From positions 1 through 44,505 of the forward strand of contig LJUC01000030.1 of the NCBI GenBank assembly GCA_001303695.1: a stretch of 44,505 bases of DNA, read 5' to 3'. Below, in pieces: positions 8,675 through 16,316 of this stretch (the stretch's first letter is position 1; every line of letters starts with the position of its first letter). The notes below the pieces were generated by a model, which was given only the letters and a program-made list of their open reading frames with translations, was not told the origin of the DNA and ran no database searches. Both the position numbers and the translations under genes were made by a program. This DNA comes from Phycisphaerae bacterium SM23_30. GTDB taxonomy: Bacteria > Planctomycetota > Phycisphaerae > Sedimentisphaerales > SM23-30.

Positions 8675-9094
8675 CTATCCGGCGTGCCGGCGGGTTACGA
8701 AACGACACCTCACGGGCATTTTGTGCGCCACCCGCAAGAGGGCGGCGCGGGCGACGTCTTCCGGGACTCCGCCTACCTCATACAAAATGGTACCCGGTTT
8801 GACCTTGGCCTCCCAGTGATCGGGCTCGCCTTTACCTTTTCCCATACGGGTCTCCAGGGGTTTGGAACTGACCGAGCGGTGGGGAAAGATTCTAATATAA
8901 ACCTTGCCGACCCGATGCAGGAAGTGAGTAGCGGCGATCCGACCCGCCTCAATCTGCTGACCGGTGATACGGCCCGGCTCCAGCGACTGAATGCCGTACT
9001 CACCATAAGCAACGTAATTGCCCTTGGTAGCATTTCCCTTGATCCTGCCGCGCTGGTATTTGCGCCATTTTACTCTTTTGGGCATTAAGGCCAT
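8675..9094 (-). CDS. rplP: 50S ribosomal protein L16
   Basis: MPKRVKWRK, QIEAGR and RMGKGKG. Confidence 0.98.
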   Translation of the reverse strand: MALMPKRVKWRKYQRGRIKGNATKGNYVAYGEYGIQSLEPGRITGQQIEAGRIAATHFLHRVGKVYIRIFPHRSVSSKPLETRMGKGKGEPDHWEAKVKPGTILYEVGGVPEDVARAALLRVAHKMPVRCRFVTRRHAG

Positions 9095-9199
9095 AAATCA
9101 ATCCTTACGGCGTTTTTTTAAAGTTTTCATTTTTATTTTATATGCTTCTGCTGGGCAAAAGCATGTCGCCAAATTTCTTTTTTATTTCGAGTCCGCCGC

Positions 9200-9883
9200 T
9201 CACCGGCGCGACTTGCGGGACGGGGCAGGCGGTGCTTCAACCTGTTCGCCAAAGTTGCCCCGATATACCCATACTTTCACTCCGATCACGCCATAAGTGG
9301 TGCGGGAGACGGCAAAGCCGTAATCCACATCGGCCTGCAGGGTGTGCAGGGGAATACTTCCCATGGTCTGTCTTTCCGAGCGGGCGATTTCGGCGCCGGC
9401 GAGTCGGCCGCTGATGATAATCTTAACGCCTTTGGCGCCGACCGCCATAGTCTGCTCGCAGTGCTGCTTCATGGCCCGACGAAAAGCGGCGCGTCTTTTA
9501 AGCTGTTCGGAAATGGCCTCGGCGACCAACTGGGCGTTCAAGTCGGGCTGCTTGATTTCCATAATATTAATAGTCACCTTCCGGTCGATCAGGTCCTCCA
9601 GTGCTTCACGAAGTTTATCGACTTCGGCGCCTTTGGGTCCGATAACCAGACCCGGCCGGGCGGTGTGCAGGACGACGCGGACATCATCACGGGTGCGTTC
9701 GATCTCGACCTCGGCAATGGCGGCATAAGGGGGCTGGCGATTCAGGCGATTGTCGATATAACGCCGGATTTGAGCATCCTCAACCAGGAAATCTCCAAAG
9801 GCGTTTTTGGGGGCGAACCACCGACTTTTCCAGCCCAGGGTTATGCCGGTTCGAAATCCAATTGGCGAAACCTTTTGGCCCAT
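9200..9883 (-). CDS. rpsC: 30S ribosomal protein S3
   Basis: MGQKVSPIGFR, RPGLVIG KH motif and SGRLAGAEIAR. Confidence 0.98.
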   Translation of the reverse strand: MGQKVSPIGFRTGITLGWKSRWFAPKNAFGDFLVEDAQIRRYIDNRLNRQPPYAAIAEVEIERTRDDVRVVLHTARPGLVIGPKGAEVDKLREALEDLIDRKVTINIMEIKQPDLNAQLVAEAISEQLKRRAAFRRAMKQHCEQTMAVGAKGVKIIISGRLAGAEIARSERQTMGSIPLHTLQADVDYGFAVSRTTYGVIGVKVWVYRGNFGEQVEAPPAPSRKSRR

Positions 9884-9915
9884 TCTATTTCCTCAAATTT
9901 TCGTCCAGGAGGGCA

Positions 9916-10473
9916 TTAAAATCCTTTTTCCACATCGACCGCCACGTGGATATGGCAGGCCTTTCGGCTCCAGGGCACGGCCCGGCCGCGATCTTTAGGT
10001 CGCCAGCGTCTGGTATTAAGCCGGACGCCAGCGTAATCCACCCGGGCCTGACAGACGTATAAGCGTTCGATATCAGCTTCCTGTTCATCGGCACTGGCAA
10101 TAGCGCTGCGGAGCACCTTGTCAACAAAGACCGCCGCTCTTTTATTGGCGAACTTGAGCACATCCAGGGCATCCTGCACGCTGCGGCCGCGTATCAGATC
10201 GGCAATGAGCCTGACCTTTCGGGGAGCAATGGGAGCAAAGCGATGGGAGGCCGACCAGACCACCAAATCCCGAGGCGAGATCCCCATCGCCCGCGCCAGG
10301 CCCTCAATATCACCGGACTTAGGTTCAGGCTTCAGATATTCGCGCTCCCAATTTTTCACCGCCGCGCAGGCCTGGTCTGCCGTTAAACCGGCGGGAATAA
10401 GAGCCGAGGCCAAATCCTCAACATTCATACCTACCGCCGTGCGCCATTGTCTTAGTTTTTCTCCGCTGAGCAT
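9916..10473 (-). CDS. rplV: 50S ribosomal protein L22 with an N-terminal ~70-aa XRE/Cro-type helix-turn-helix domain
   Basis: C-terminal ~115 aa are uL22 (APRKVRLIADLIRG, KVLRSAIASA, RGRA...CHI); the N-terminus follows the HTH_XRE pattern; canonical rpsS-rplV-rpsC position. Confidence 0.95.
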   Translation of the reverse strand: MLSGEKLRQWRTAVGMNVEDLASALIPAGLTADQACAAVKNWEREYLKPEPKSGDIEGLARAMGISPRDLVVWSASHRFAPIAPRKVRLIADLIRGRSVQDALDVLKFANKRAAVFVDKVLRSAIASADEQEADIERLYVCQARVDYAGVRLNTRRWRPKDRGRAVPWSRKACHIHVAVDVEKGF

Positions 10474-10512
10474 ATCGCTCTATCCTGATATTGTGCTGAT
10501 TTCTTTGTTGTT

Positions 10513-10782
10513 CTATCTTGCTTTACTGCCACTGTGTCCTTTGAAGATCCGGGTAGGAGAAAATTCTCCCAGTTTGTGGCCGACCATATCCTCGGTTACG
10601 TATATTTTGTTAAAAATTTTTCCGTTATGGACCATAAAGGTGTGGCCCACGAACTCGGGCACGATGGTGGATCGGCGGGCCCAGGTTTTGATGGGCGTAC
10701 GATCCCCATTTTCCTGCTGGCGGAACACTTTTTTCAGCAGTTTTTGATCTACATAAGGTCCTTTTTTCAGTGATCGTCCCAT
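10513..10782 (-). CDS. rpsS: 30S ribosomal protein S19
   Basis: [10 protein letters not shown] and [13 protein letters not shown]. Confidence 0.98.
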
Positions 10783-10798
10783 GCCGGGGTCCTTACTT

Positions 10799-11650
10799 TT
10801 ATATAGCTACCTGAATTCCTCGTGCAGTTTTTCTTCGACGAATAATACGTTTGTTTGAGTTTTTTCGCCTGTTTCTGGTTTTACCCCCTTTAGCCGGGAC
10901 ACCGGTGGGCGAGCAGGGATGGCGCCCGCCATTGCTGCGGCCCTCGCCGCCGCCCAAGGGATGGGCAACGGGATTCATGGCCTTTCCACGAACGTGAGGT
11001 CGGCGACCCATGTGGCGTTTTCGTCCGGCTTTGCCGATATGCACGTGCTGATGGTCCACGTTGCCCAGTTGGCCAATAGTTGCACGGCAGGCAACCGGTA
11101 TCATTCTAATTTCACCACTGGGCATAATAATGTGAGCCCACTTGCCTTCTCGGGCTGCCAGGGTAGCTACCGCACCGGCTGAGCGTACGAGCTTTCCGCC
11201 CTGGCCCTGTTTCATCTCGATATTGTGTATTTCCAGCCCGGTAGGGATGGCCGCCAGCGGCATACAATTGCCGACTTTAGGCTCGACCCGCGGACCGTTT
11301 TCCACCGTGTCGCCGACGGTCAGGCCCTGAGGGGCGAGAATGTATCTTTTTTCTCCGTCGGCATAGTGAAGCAAAGCAATGCAACAGGAGCGATTGGGAT
11401 CGTACTCGACGGCGGCGACGCGGGCGGGGATGTTATCTTTATTGCGTTTGAAATCGATGATGCGATAAATTCGGCGGGCCCCGCCGCCCCGGAAGCGGGC
11501 GGTGATTTTGCCGCTGTGGTTTCTGCCGCCGTTCTTTTTGATACGTCTGATAAGTGATTTTTCCGGCCGGGAGCGGGTGACTTCGGCAAAGTCGTTCACC
11601 GAGGAGTAGCGTCGGCCGGGACTGGTAGGCTTATAGTTTCTAATACCCAT
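10799..11650 (-). CDS. rplB: 50S ribosomal protein L2
   Basis: EYDPNRS, GKAGR and [13 protein letters not shown]. Confidence 0.98.
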
Positions 11651-11697
11651 TTTATCACGTTAAACCATTTGGTTTCCCAGGGGTTTGAAAGTTCTCC

Positions 11698-11979
11698 TTA
11701 GAATAAATCGATGCGGGAATTCTCATCCAGCACCACTACCGCCTTCTTCCAATGGGCCGTGATGCCGACAGTTCGACCACGACGGCGGCGTTTACCTTTG
11801 CGATTAGCTGTTCTAACATCAACCACCTTAACATTGTATATCTTCTCGACCGCCTGCTTGATCTGGGTTTTATTAGCCAGAGAGTGCACCTGAAAAGGGT
11901 AGGCGTTTAAGGTTTCAGCCTGATGAGTCCCCTTCTCGGTAATCAGCGGTCTGATAATTATCTGGTAGGGATTATCCAC
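11698..11979 (-). CDS. rplW: 50S ribosomal protein L23
   Basis: PLITEK, ANKTQIKQAVE and WKKAVV; GTG start. Confidence 0.97.
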   Translation of the reverse strand: MDNPYQIIIRPLITEKGTHQAETLNAYPFQVHSLANKTQIKQAVEKIYNVKVVDVRTANRKGKRRRRGRTVGITAHWKKAVVVLDENSRIDLF

Positions 11980-12742
11980 TTATATCACCTCGAGCCTCCG
12001 GTGAAGAAAGGCGGCTTTCATTGGGTCTTTTATCCGGTTCAGGCGGTTCCGCAGATTCGGTCTGTTCCGCAAGGTCGGTCTGTTGAGCTGGTTTATCCTG
12101 GTCCGCCGGTTCTGATTGGGGCGGCAGCGGATTGATCAAAGCTTCCAGGGCCGCCCGGGTGAAAAGCAGTTTCTGGCGCTGTAAAATATCACCGGCATTA
12201 AGCTGGGCCACTTCCAGGGCGTCCACACGCGGGATGTTACGGAGTGATTTATAAACCATGGGATTGTACTTTTCGGTGGCGACCAGACAGCTACGATCTA
12301 TTTTAAGATTGTTAAGGATATGCGCAAAGGCAGCGGTGCGCGGTTCATCGAAATTAAGCTGGTCGATGACGATGGCGTTATCACTCTGCATTTTGGCCAA
12401 GATGGCATTATTGCGGGCGAGGCGGCGTTGTTTTTTAGGCATGCGCTGGCGGAAATCACGCGGCATTTTAGCAAACGCGACCCCCCCTCCACGCCTAATG
12501 ACCGTACGGACCGTCCCCATGCGCGCCCGCCCCGTGCCTTTTTGCCGATAGATTTTTCGGGTCGATCCGCTAACCATACCCCGACTTTTCGTCGTCGCCG
12601 AACCCTGGCGTCGATTGGCATGATACATGACCAAGGCCTGCTTCAAAAGGGCGGGTCTGACGCGACCTCCCAGCAGGGTCTCATCGATCTGCAGACGATC
12701 GACCTGTTTTCCTTCTCGATCATATACCGGAATATCCAACAT
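11972..12742 (-). CDS. rplD: 50S ribosomal protein L4 with a ~50-aa low-complexity C-terminal tail
   Basis: TKSRGMVSGS..KIYRQKGTGRAR and RGGG. Confidence 0.97.
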   Translation of the reverse strand: MLDIPVYDREGKQVDRLQIDETLLGGRVRPALLKQALVMYHANRRQGSATTKSRGMVSGSTRKIYRQKGTGRARMGTVRTVIRRGGGVAFAKMPRDFRQRMPKKQRRLARNNAILAKMQSDNAIVIDQLNFDEPRTAAFAHILNNLKIDRSCLVATEKYNPMVYKSLRNIPRVDALEVAQLNAGDILQRQKLLFTRAALEALINPLPPQSEPADQDKPAQQTDLAEQTESAEPPEPDKRPNESRLSSPEARGDISG

Positions 12743-12779
12743 AATTTTTCATCCCAGCGAGGCCAGGTAAATCTTCGCC

Positions 12780-13421
12780 TCAACTCTTGGTTTTCGCTTT
12801 TGAAACTATAACGTAACTATCGGGAGGTCCGGCCACCGAACCTTTGATCACCAGTAGATGGTTCTGCCGGTCGATAGCGACGACTTTATGATTACGAGAG
12901 GAACAACGGACATGGCCTACATGGCCGGCCATTTTTTTGCCTTTTTTGATGCTGCGGCCGGTACTACCGGAAACCACGCTGATGGAACCGGGACTGCGGT
13001 GTTTTCGCTCGACGCCATGGCTGGCGGGCTGACCTTTAAAGCCATAGCGTTTCACGACGCCGGTAAAGCCCTTGCCCTTGCTGGTGCCGAGGACATCAAC
13101 AAATTTTATTTCCCGAAAAAGATCGACGGTCAGCTCATCCCCGATTTTCTGGGTGGGTTGTTGTTGCAGGGAGACTTCACGCACGAAGGCTTTGACGGGG
13201 GCGCCGGCCTTTTGGGCATGTCCGATTTGGGGTTTCTTTCGGCGAGAACGTTTAACATCTTCAAAACCCAACTGCAGGGCGTTATAACCGTCGGTCTGTT
13301 CGGTTTTTACCTGCATAACCGTACAGGGTCCGGTCCGGATAACGGTCACCGGGACGATGACGCCTTTTTCGTCGTACATGCGGGTCATGCCGATTTTTTT
13401 CCCTAAAAGGGCCTGGGCCAT
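12780..13421 (-). CDS. rplC: 50S ribosomal protein L3
   Basis: GKKIGMT, DGYNALQLG, SKGKGFTGVVKR and HRSPGSI. Confidence 0.98.
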   Translation of the reverse strand: MAQALLGKKIGMTRMYDEKGVIVPVTVIRTGPCTVMQVKTEQTDGYNALQLGFEDVKRSRRKKPQIGHAQKAGAPVKAFVREVSLQQQPTQKIGDELTVDLFREIKFVDVLGTSKGKGFTGVVKRYGFKGQPASHGVERKHRSPGSISVVSGSTGRSIKKGKKMAGHVGHVRCSSRNHKVVAIDRQNHLLVIKGSVAGPPDSYVIVSKAKTKS

Positions 13422-13461
13422 TTTAACTACTCGTTCCTGTTTGCTCTTTTTTCGTTCGGTT

Positions 13462-13489
13462 AAAAAAAGTGCCGCTCAAAAGCCGGCAC
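13462..13489 (-). terminator. intrinsic terminator-like hairpin between rpsJ and rplC
   Basis: Minus strand GTGCCG-GCTTTTGAG-CGGCAC followed by T7. Confidence 0.65.
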
Positions 13490-13509
13490 ATTTCACATCT
13501 TATGAGTAA

Positions 13510-13818
13510 CTATACCCGTATCTTGATAAACACGCCCGCCGGGACTACTAAACGGTTGAGAGCCTCCACGGTTCGGGGATTGGCCTCAAAAATATCAATA
13601 AGGCGTTTATGAGTGCGAATTTCAAACTGTTCCCGTGATTTCTTATCGATATGAGGCGATCGAAGGACGGTATAACGCTCGATACGGGTGGGCAGGGGAA
13701 TAGGACCGGAGACCTGGGCGTTGGTGCGCCGGGCATGATCGACTATCTCCTTGGCCGAAGCGTCCAAGGCTCGATGGTCGTAGGCTTCCATGCGAATTCT
13801 AATACGTTCGGTTTCCAC
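13510..13818 (-). CDS. rpsJ: 30S ribosomal protein S10
   Basis: GPIPLPT and [24 protein letters not shown]; GTG start with GGAG upstream. Confidence 0.98.
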
Positions 13819-13933
13819 ATCCAGGACTCCCAGTTATTCCACAGCCCCATATTTTTGTTAATCAACGTTATTCCGGTGGGGCAGGTCTGCTCGCTAAGCC
13901 TGTGGGATTCTCAAACACCAGGGCCCGGCGATT

Positions 13934-13964
13934 TTGACAAACTCATTACATTAGCATTTATAAT
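13934..13964 (+). promoter_or_regulatory. consensus TTGACA-N19-TATAAT promoter-like site, divergent from the S10 promoter
   Basis: Both hexamers perfect; 19-nt spacer; overlaps the minus-strand promoter. Confidence 0.35.
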
Positions 13965-13975
13965 ATTTTAGTCAA
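13948..13975 (-). promoter_or_regulatory. putative sigma70 promoter of the S10 operon
   Basis: TTGACT (13975-13970), N16, extended -10 TGc-TAATGT (13953-13948); ~130 nt upstream of rpsJ. Confidence 0.55.
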
Positions 13976-14170
13976 TAAAAACTTACAAAAAATCCACAAC
14001 CCCCGCTCAACACGAGGTTAAAAGGCCCTCTCCCCCGCCGTTGGGGCTGAATTATAACAACCTATATGGGTAGGGTTTGTTTGATTTAATAACTACCGGG
14101 GGCAGGCCCATTAAAGGCTCAACCCTTCCATCCGTGGATAACTATAGGCTAGACAATAACTTACACTAAC

Positions 14171-14192
14171 GCAGAAAATTCCATTTTTCTGC
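14171..14192. terminator. hairpin downstream of fusA
   Basis: GCAGAAAA/TTTTCTGC 8-bp stem; no U-tract. Confidence 0.3.
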
Positions 14193-14237
14193 TCGCAAGG
14201 ATCGAGAACAGAAATTTACTATTTATTTATGATCGTG

Positions 14238-16316
14238 TCAATAGGCTGTTTCCAAAACTTTTTGGGAAATTTGTTCCGGCATGGCGGCATACTTATAGGG
14301 TTCCATGGTGTAGCTGGCCCGGCCCTGGGTATTGCTCCGGAGGTCGGAGGCATAGCCGAAGGTTTCCGACAGGGGCACCAGGGCATCGATGATCCGAATT
14401 TGCTGGCGCTGCCGAGCGTGCCGAATGACCGCCCTTCTGCGGGTAAGATCGCCCTGTACCGCCCCGTAGTACTGCTCTGGGGTGACGATTTGCATTTTCA
14501 TGATGGGCTCAAGCAGGACAGGCTGTGCCTTTTTTACGGCATCATAAAAAGCCAAGCTGGCGGCCTGTTGGAAGGCAATGTCAGAGGAATCCACTGTGTG
14601 ATAGGAGCCGTCCATGATGGAGATTTTAATGTCAATAAGCGGAAAACCGGCCAGGACGCCACTGCCGGCGGCGGCGGAAACACCCGTTATAATAGAGGGA
14701 ATGTATTCTTTGGGGATGGCACCATGGGATACCCGATCCTCGAAGATCAGGTGATCTTCGTCCGGTTCCGGCTGATGAGGTTCAACAGATAGTACGACAT
14801 GGCCGTACTGTCCGCGGCCGCCGGTTTGTTTGATAAATTTCCCTTCGCCCTGAGCGGTCAGGGTTATGGTTTCCTTATATGCCACTCTTGGTCGGCCCAC
14901 ACGAATATTCAGACCCATATCCCTGGTTATTTTATGCTGCAGGATTTCCAGGTGTAATTCTCCCATGCCGCTGATAATGGTTTGCCCGGTTTCGGAGTTG
15001 AAATCAGCGGCAAAAGTGGGGTCCTCGCGTTTGAGGATATCAAGGGCCTGGCCGAGTTTGGCTCTTTCGCCGGCAGTGCGGGGTTCAATAGAAAGGCTCA
15101 TCACAGGCTCAGGGAATTTAATCCCCTCAAGGACAATAGGTTTTTTCGCGGAACAGAGGGTATCGCCGGTAAGGGTATGCTTCAGGCCCACCAGGGCCAC
15201 AATATCGCCGGCGATTGCCTGCTGGCACTGGATTCGGTGGTCGGCGTGCATCCGATAAATTTTGGTGATGTTTTCCTTACGGTCCCGAGAACTGTTTAAG
15301 AGCTTTATGTTGGTTTTCAGAGTACCAGAATAAATCCGGGTGTAGATAAGATCGCCGTGCTGGCCGGCGGTGATCTTAAAGGCCGTGGCCACCAATATAC
15401 CCTCCGGATCACATTGGTATTTAAGAGTTTTTTCGGGTTTGCCGGGGGCGTATCCGGGGATATACCGGCGATCTAAAGGACTGGGTAAATAACGAACCAC
15501 AGCATCAAGTAAGGCGCGTGAGCCGATACTTTGCAGGGCCGCGCCGCACAGGACCGGATGCAGTTTGCCCTCCAGGGTGCCGGCGCGCAGACCGGCAATA
15601 ATTTGATCGGAGGATATGGGCTGATCGTGAATATAAGCCTCCAGGAGCTGACTATCATATTCGGCGGCCTGCTCGATGAGGTCGTGACGGGCCTCTCGGG
15701 CGGCCTCGAGATATGGCTGAGGTATGGCCTGGGCCTCAAAAGTAGCGCCCACCTTTTCTTGTTTGAAAAAGAGGGCCTGCATCTCCAAAAGGTCGATAAA
15801 ACCGAGGAAATTATCTTCGGCGCCCATAGGAAGTTGGACGGGAACCGGTTGGGCGAGTAGTTTTTCGCGCAGACTCCTGACCGACATTTCAAAATCGGCG
15901 CCTATTTTATCCATTTTATTAATAAAGCATATACAGGGCACCTGATATTTCTGGGCTTGATGCCAAACGGTTTCAGACTGAGCCTGCACCCCTTCGCTGG
16001 CGTCAAAAACGGCCACCGCCCCGTCAAGAATAAGCAGAGAGCGCTCCACTTCAATGGTAAAATCGACGTGGCCGGGGGTATCGATCAGGTTGATGGTGTG
16101 ACCTTTCCAGGGACAGGTAGTAGCAGCGGAGGTAATGGTGATGCCGCGCTGCTGCTCTTCGGCGAGATAGTCCATAACGGTGGTGCCCTCATGGACCTCA
16201 CCGATCTTGTGGGTTCTGCCCGTGAAATAAAGAATGCGTTCCGTGACGGTGGTTTTACCGGCGTCAATATGGGCCATGATACCGAGGTTACGAATTTTTT
16301 CCAGGTTGCGACTCAT
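14238..16316 (-). CDS. fusA: elongation factor G (divergent str-operon copy)
   Basis: [43 protein letters not shown] and [10 protein letters not shown]. Confidence 0.96.

Follow-up and report, generated by a model that had tools for sequence, protein, structure and literature searches.

A 44,505-nucleotide stretch of contig LJUC01000030.1 from Phycisphaerae bacterium SM23_30 (assembly GCA_001303695.1; hereinafter, the window) contains an rplV gene in which ribosomal protein uL22 is preceded, within the same open reading frame (ORF), by a predicted Cro/C1 (XRE)-type helix-turn-helix (HTH) domain. The reading that we favor, with a rough probability of 0.55, is that the HTH domain is held in place on the ribosome surface as a module next to the exit of the polypeptide tunnel, and is not a classical operator-binding repressor. 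The lines of evidence that bear on this proposal are the predicted structure of the fusion protein, the conservation of its start and of the extension itself, the phyletic distribution of the fusion, and the organization of the region upstream of the S10 operon.

Domain architecture and predicted structure of the fusion protein

The ATG-started rplV gene (9916..10473, minus strand; 185 codons followed by a TAA stop) belongs to a long operon of ribosomal protein genes. The uL22 core with its tunnel beta-hairpin occupies residues 74-185 (9919..10254, minus strand) and is complete: the Pfam family Ribosomal_L22 (PF00237) matches residues 75-179 with an expectation value (E) of 5.9e-28 and a score of 97.5 bits against a cut-off of 28, covering profile positions 1-103 of 104, and the NCBIfam model rplV_bact (TIGR01044) gives the window protein 95.4 bits against a cut-off of 73.65. 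About 73 residues are added before this complete uL22, with neither a stop nor a linker between the two parts. The translation equals the residues quoted in an earlier reading of this DNA made from the letters alone (hereinafter, the sequence-only reading), and the architecture described there, a 185-residue product with uL22 behind an N-terminal extension, holds. In the AlphaFold2 model of the full-length protein, built on a 50-sequence alignment (predicted local distance difference test score, pLDDT, 91.5; predicted template modeling score, pTM, 0.82), the strands of the uL22 hairpin are placed at residues 138-150 and 157-181; Foldseek matches solved uL22 chains with E down to 3.5e-11, template modeling (TM) scores by target of 0.9-0.95 and 106-116 aligned columns. 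The fusion is the sole uL22 of these organisms, with one match each in genome G000 (78.5% complete) and in 39 other matching genomes of the order.

Residues 1-73 (10255..10473, minus strand) are, according to the structural models, a five-helix Cro/C1 (XRE) domain. The prediction for the domain alone, made from an alignment of 34 extensions (hereinafter A1), has a pLDDT of 90.4 and comprises helices at 4-14, 18-23, 32-43 and 53-63, a short final turn and a loop at 24-31; in A1, M1, N41 and W42 are invariant, and L2, K6, L7, A22, P49 and A60 are conserved in at least 90% of the sequences. When this model was compared with PDB structures using Foldseek, 50 of 50 among the matches listed were XRE-type HTH domains (TMq 0.55-0.76; probability ~1.0), including those of C.AhdI, DdrO, P22 c2, SinR, 434 Cro and CapH as well as the HTH-like N-terminal domains of HppE and HEPD. 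The E values among these listed matches, 0.012-0.26 with none at or below 0.001, are in the range to be expected of 75 residues. A structure search of the ESM Atlas was concordant with the XRE-type fold (TM 0.73-0.78). At the sequence level, Pfam models detected the domain at E<=0.01 in a large fraction of the 34 family members (HTH_31 in 22, HTH_3 in 17 and HTH_19 in 13; best E 6e-7), and the window copy itself scores under the Pfam cut-offs (HTH_31, PF13560, 19.2 bits against 27; HTH_3, PF01381, 18.5 bits against 23), with the models matching it in two halves, 4-34 and 38-70. When PDB sequences were searched with a profile, type V-K TniQ ranked first with its HTH domain (E 2.8e-4), followed by CapH. 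The sequence-only reading had proposed an N-terminal XRE/Cro-type HTH domain with an insert before helix 3, to be checked with AlphaFold and Foldseek on the N-terminal residues; that check predicts an HTH fold, and the Pfam matches of the relatives and the ESM Atlas search point the same way.

The insert, at residues ~24-33 (10375..10404, minus strand; columns 34-40 of A1), the place where the Pfam match is split, is modeled in the full-length protein as part of a lengthened helix 2/turn/helix 3 hairpin. In that model, helix 2 extends over residues 18-28 and is followed by a three-residue turn and by helix 3 at 32-43, so that the hairpin is longer than usual, whereas the domain-only model has its loop at 24-31; 7 of the 34 aligned relatives have a further 7 residues at the tip, and across the family helix 3 opens with turns in which the residues vary or are alanine. 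The extension was also read as joined to uL22 without a linker, and the full-length model agrees, with a helix at 67-70, two residues, and then the first uL22 strand at 73-80. A homodimer prediction for two copies of the domain, based on A1, yielded a score of 0.01, which counts neither for nor against dimerization.

Translation of the extension and selection acting on it

As far as gene sequences can tell, the extension is a real translated coding sequence under purifying selection, because it has a conserved start, a Shine-Dalgarno (SD)-like motif ahead of that start and low ratios of nonsynonymous to synonymous substitution rates (dN/dS). In the window, an SD-like AGGA (10483..10486, minus strand) lies 9 nucleotides upstream of the ATG at 10473. 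All 20 loci examined in the same family share this ATG, with Met-Leu at the start and Lys-Leu at positions 6-7, and the frame opens just 0-14 codons earlier; the seven other families of the order contributed another 20 loci, every one of which has this start (12 parsed by script and 8 read by eye from the frames), and in the family that we designate f19 the start is conserved in 7 of 7 loci, Lys-Leu at positions 6-7 included, with GTG as its codon. The public records are consistent with this picture: among 80 species-representative loci, 79 could be parsed and 71 span the whole protein, and these 71 start with ATG (64) or GTG (7), encode 180-191 amino acids in all but two cases (69/71) and have an in-frame stop no more than 12 codons upstream of the start in 60 cases. 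One contig of a public metagenome-assembled genome (MAG), L137, has an HTH-uL22 frame that stays open for 430 amino acids, with the match to the query ending at residue 133; a frameshift, a faulty assembly or an additional fusion could account for this long frame.

Starts close to the uL22 core were sought in 39 loci by scanning from 10 codons before to 3 codons after the junction (one row, L012, was mis-indexed). No in-frame start codon was present there in 15 loci, and an SD-like 4-mer preceded one in only 3 of the 39; the N-terminal start had an SD-like 4-mer upstream in 31 of the 39. The observation in the sequence-only reading that Met is missing at the usual uL22 start is right in the strict sense that no ATG occurs exactly there, but in-frame alternatives are close by, namely an ATG (codon 63), a TTG (codon 70) and a GTG (codon 71). 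The full 185-residue protein has an estimated mass of about 20-21 kDa, compared to about 12.5 kDa for a product starting at the core. For the window gene, the scan found no SD-like motif at the TTG or the GTG, and inspection by eye revealed no well-spaced one ahead of the ATG at codon 63, which lies outside the scanned segment.

In 18 of 18 close pairs of genes (75-99.5% identity), the dN/dS of the extension is in the range of 0.018 to 0.232, compared to 0 to 0.11 for the core; by this measure, the extension evolves about three times faster than uL22 proper. Together with the alignment of 34 extensions and its invariant residues, these ratios put the conservation of the extension well outside what chance would produce.

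Phyletic distribution and history of the fusion

Genome comparison indicates that the fusion is old and is present throughout its own order and in one non-sister family, the Phycisphaeraceae-like f19. Within the order (labelled Sedimentisphaerales), 40 of 41 genomes have one uL22 match, all spanning the extension, and the sole genome without a match is 70% complete. In a sample of 151 genomes of the class, the alignment to the query reaches back at least to residue 16 in the 20 genomes of the order and in 7 of 7 f19 genomes, and it begins no earlier than residue 35 in the other 123 genomes with a match. Normal-length loci from other Phycisphaerae families begin uL22 with Met at the core in 11 of 13 cases, the other two having been printed in the wrong frame. 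A profile of the domain alone detected 13 of 301 sampled Planctomycetota genomes (7 from the order, 5 from f19 and one weak match in a 912-residue frame) and no second copy of the domain in any of the 301; the fusion turned up neither elsewhere in the class nor in the other Planctomycetota sampled. Some of the families that lack the HTH domain, f12 and f14 (loci L031, L033 and L036), have uL22 with C-terminal low-complexity tails rich in Lys, Ala and Pro.

A survey of rplV across Planctomycetota, suggested in the sequence-only reading, thus finds the extension kept in close relatives, and the surmise that it might be a lineage-wide trait already present in databases proved correct: it occurs in all 40 matching genomes of the order and also in f19, and databases label the protein simply '50S ribosomal protein L22'. 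A precomputed HTH Pfam match beside PF00237 already exists for about 19 among the 120 relatives listed. In public records, members of the order are titled Sedimentisphaerales, Phycisphaerae or, in many third-party MAGs, 'uncultured Pirellulales', and the f19-like set is titled Phycisphaeraceae or Phycisphaerales. A search of 1.84 billion representative proteins gave only 233 matches at E<=0.001. The top-scoring large proteins (P0122, P0123, P0136 and others) were rejected as close relatives, being tandem arrays of ordinary XRE domains in which the scores add up. Five such proteins (P0122, P0123, P0136, P0141 and P0142) are 525-1927 amino acids long and contain 7-10 tandem XRE-type HTH repeats; in P0123, each repeat has a similar insert before helix 3.

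In a tree built from the 23S rRNA of 15 genomes, with Escherichia coli as the root, f19 is the sister group of a fusion-less family (support 1.0), and the order is the sister group of three fusion-less families (0.91); the two fusion groups are likewise separate in the tree of the uL22 core. Identity between the fusion lineages is 26-29% in the domain, versus 36% inside the order, and 46-48% in the core, versus 61% inside the order. There is no sign of recent transfer, given that for domain and core alike the divergence between the lineages exceeds that inside the order, and transfer of the whole gene between the lineages is not supported, on the same grounds and because the cores do not group together. 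By these trees and distances, the fusion would be either as old as the class, with at least two losses, or the product of a very early origin or transfer. Among the 23S rRNA sequences, that of genome G031 (L155) contains an insertion of ~298 nucleotides at about E. coli positions 1868-1878, where its relatives have 0-15 nucleotides, and the second rRNA copy is of nearly equal length; this insertion may be an intervening sequence or an intron.

The region upstream of the S10 operon

The immediate neighbors of the fusion gene, named by eye from ORFs and translations, are rpsS (uS19; 10513..10782, minus strand) upstream and rpsC (uS3; 9200..9883, minus strand) downstream. For a possible operator, we examined the gap of ~420 nucleotides (13819-14237) upstream of rpsJ. 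It is preceded by a putative fusA (14238-16316, assigned by size and position only), and no tuf gene lies in the ~420 nucleotides between this gene and rpsJ.

A promoter-like site on the minus strand (14241-14213; TTGACA, a 17-nucleotide spacer and TAAATT, in agreement with the consensus at 10 of 12 positions) overlaps the stop of the 692-residue ORF that lies upstream. In the window, about 15 nucleotides past the second hexamer lies a conserved box with the consensus GAAGCGAGC (window copy TTGCGAGC), in which GCGAGC alone is invariant. Behind the box is a hairpin, the arms of which occupy 14185-14192 and 14171-14178 in the window; the stem differs among genomes, and its complementarity, assessed by eye, is kept. 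A tail resembling AGTGTA(A/G)GTT closes the element, which spans 14154-14241 of the window, on the minus strand. All 10 genomes examined from the order have the element; it was found in none of 3 from f19 and in none of 3 other genomes of the class.

No palindromic operator or conserved inverted repeat was found at the S10 promoter, and the conserved box is non-palindromic. Since the stem varies in sequence and yet stays complementary, the element reads as RNA and not as an XRE operator; it is probably a leader RNA at the 5' end of the S10 operon. Its distribution is not that of the fusion, given that it was not convincingly found in any of the 3 f19 genomes. An Rfam scan of 9000-14500 yielded nothing relevant and no match to the element, alignment of the leaders with MAFFT followed by RNAalifold gave a poor three-pair structure with misaligned 3' arms, and a loose leader pattern, which occurred in whole genomes no more often than its reversed control, was non-specific. 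One match to this pattern upstream of an f19 rpsJ was discarded because it lies in a GC-rich repeat without a promoter. Altogether, the suggestion in the sequence-only reading that the HTH domain makes uL22 a DNA-binding autoregulator gained no support from the promoter region, which offers an RNA-like hairpin and no palindromic operator, or from the domain itself, with its lengthened and variable helix 2-helix 3 hairpin.

Comparison with known uL22 proteins and HTH domains

The fusion protein resembles canonical bacterial uL22 (PF00237, TIGR01044) in the full family match, the fold with the tunnel hairpin, the position between rpsS and rpsC and the single copy per genome; it differs in having 73 extra N-terminal residues that form a predicted independently folded domain. 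None of the 60 solved uL22 sequences listed (118 match at E<=0.001) aligns with profile positions before 68. Other N-terminal additions do occur in solved chains, where the core starts at residues 18-26 (Deinococcus, Porphyromonas and Flavobacterium), 40-61 (chloroplasts) or 78-107 (mitochondria), and because they come from several lineages, the uL22 N-terminus seems to tolerate extra mass on ribosomes. Most other uL22 extensions are tails and are not known to form a recognizable fold of the DNA-binding type. The enlargement of a universal core in one lineage is common to the N-terminal tails of Deinococcus and Bacteroidota, the mycobacterial C-terminal tail, chloroplast uL22c, mitochondrial uL22m and PRK12279, but none of these matches the HTH domain, and the 'L22/unknown domain fusion' of PRK12279 matched the core only. 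PMC5071890 also describes extended uL22 termini on working ribosomes.

With the Cro/C1 (XRE) domains of C.AhdI, P22 c2, 434 Cro, SinR and DdrO, the extension shares the five-helix fold and the W-x-x-G...P pattern at the end of helix 3 and in the following loop; it differs from them in its helices 2 and 3, which are longer in the full-length model, its variable tip and its partner, a ribosomal protein instead of an oligomerization or sensor domain. The N-terminal HTH domain of ShTniQ (7oxd, 8bd4) is the best solved sequence match (E 2.8e-4 over positions 22-71) and likewise has a longer helix 2-helix 3 segment, but the similarity is weak, and the fusion lacks zinc-finger domains and a transposon context, so we treat ShTniQ as an analogy only and not as a family assignment. 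Membership in the TniQ family was rejected accordingly: the HTH domain leads into uL22 and not into zinc fingers, the context is the S10 operon, and only positions 22-71 are similar. The ShTniQ HTH domain contacts the protein TnsC and not an operator (PMC9798831), a precedent for an HTH domain that works through protein contacts.

We found no description of an HTH-uL22 fusion in full texts under Creative Commons licenses in PubMed Central (PMC) and bioRxiv. By a term search, a 2024 review of extraribosomal functions names uL22 in no role other than that of an early assembly protein and contains no mention of a helix-turn-helix (PMC10931766), and the available part of PMC7203096 contains no relevant passage. 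The fusion is a lineage-specific extension of a ribosomal protein, unusual in that the extension is a recognizable repressor-type domain.

Possible functions of the HTH domain

Because the fusion gene is the only source of uL22, the domain should sit on the ribosome, in essentially every 50S subunit, in line with the second option of the sequence-only reading, a ribosome-surface module that might bind rRNA, nascent chain or SecY/SRP/trigger factor. The groove between uL22 and bL32 is where peptide deformylase docks. In the large subunit, the globular part of uL22 faces the solvent and borders the polypeptide exit. The protein is counted among those around the tunnel exit (PMC5071890); the HTH domain would accordingly be placed beside the exit. 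There, it could act as a structural brace on adjoining rRNA or protein or, alternatively, as a docking surface for a factor acting on nascent chains or on the subunit, and it would not function as a classical dimeric operator-binding repressor. We prefer such a surface module over a repressor because of the two-residue junction, rigid in the full-length model, the hairpin, lengthened in that model and variable among relatives, and the absence of a palindromic operator at the S10 promoter.

Several observations weigh against this interpretation or leave it without a defined target. Across 13 variable segments of 23S rRNA in 15 complete or near-complete genomes and E. coli, no length change co-segregates with the fusion. 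Compensation for a lost neighbor was considered and rejected, since 17 of 17 genomes have bL32 and 16 of 17 have bL17 (the miss being the 78.5% complete G000). As neither a change in 23S rRNA nor a loss of bL32 or bL17 co-segregates with the fusion, no particular ribosomal partner is indicated. Basic residues are kept at positions 6, 8, 40, 44, 48 and 52 of the domain, and the mean net charge is about +3.4 (-1 in the window copy); a basic domain of this kind would also suit nucleic-acid binding. Finally, the core role of uL22 does not require the domain, given that related Phycisphaerae families manage well in its absence.

Repression in the strict sense, whereby unassembled uL22 would bind DNA through the HTH domain and tune transcription, for instance, of ribosomal protein operons, seems unlikely. 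Apart from the Cro/C1 repressor fold identified with Foldseek, it can draw on the invariant N41-W42 at the end of helix 3, on the basic residues conserved at 6, 40, 44, 48 and 52 and on the promoter-like site ahead of the S10 operon. Yet that promoter shows no palindrome or conserved inverted repeat but a non-palindromic box and an RNA-like hairpin, the tip between helices 2 and 3 is lengthened and of variable length, the would-be base-reading residues are variable or alanine, a separate dimerization domain is lacking, the junction to the core is rigid in the full-length model, and most copies of the protein, being the sole uL22, must be in ribosomes. We similarly give a low probability to an RNA-directed role, in which the domain would aid the docking of uL22 on 23S rRNA in early 50S assembly or bind the mRNA leader of the S10 operon autogenously: XRE domains are not known to be RNA binders, no rRNA indel co-segregates with the fusion, and the leader was not convincingly found in f19 (0 of 3, by a pattern search that is non-specific), so leader and fusion do not co-occur. 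This role would fit the conserved 5' leader element of the S10 operon in all 10 genomes examined from the order, the positive net charge of the domain family-wide and the listing of uL22 among the proteins required for the first step of 50S assembly (PMC10931766).

That the domain is a mere passenger, an ancient accidental fusion without a function of its own that is kept as its removal mildly harms folding or expression, appears quite improbable. The normal-length uL22 of several Phycisphaerae families, the at least two losses or two gains implied by the 23S rooting and the roughly threefold faster evolution compared to the core could be accommodated in this way, but dN/dS does not exceed 0.23 in any of the 18 pairs, surface positions are invariant, and not one of the 40 matching genomes of the order or of the 7 f19 genomes lacks the domain. 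The least probable explanation by far, and one to which we attach hardly any weight, is an annotation artefact, in which translation would begin close to the uL22 core and leave the 70 codons before it untranslated. The TTG and GTG at codons 70-71 and the ATG at codon 63 of the window gene could in principle serve such a start; against it stand the purifying selection on the extension, its confidently predicted fold, the conservation of the N-terminal start and its SD-like motif, and the 15 of 39 relatives that have no in-frame start near the junction. Going beyond a fixed surface module, we also consider a more active function, a possible but doubtful one, in which the HTH domain would be a working module on every ribosome, serving as a tunnel-exit adaptor to a partner that other bacterial ribosomes do not bind in this manner, be it nucleoid DNA, a structured mRNA leader or a lineage-specific nascent-chain or hibernation factor, while the free form may report excess uL22.

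Implications

The exit tunnel is lined by uL22, a universal protein located at the rim where factors that handle nascent proteins dock. A repressor-type domain on this protein, long kept in two Phycisphaerae lineages, would give their ribosomes a surface feature that is absent from solved ribosomes. The fusion should be easy to test, being present in complete single-contig genomes of the order (G003, G031, G037, G144 and G178), with a domain that is small and predicted to fold alone. If the domain binds a specific partner, it would be a further case of lineage-specific ribosome specialization, in a phylum with unusual cell biology; if the bound partner is DNA or mRNA, the fusion would connect the ribosome physically and directly with gene regulation; and if the domain acts as an adaptor, these bacteria would have found a new way to wire a domain of the DNA-binding type into the ribosome.
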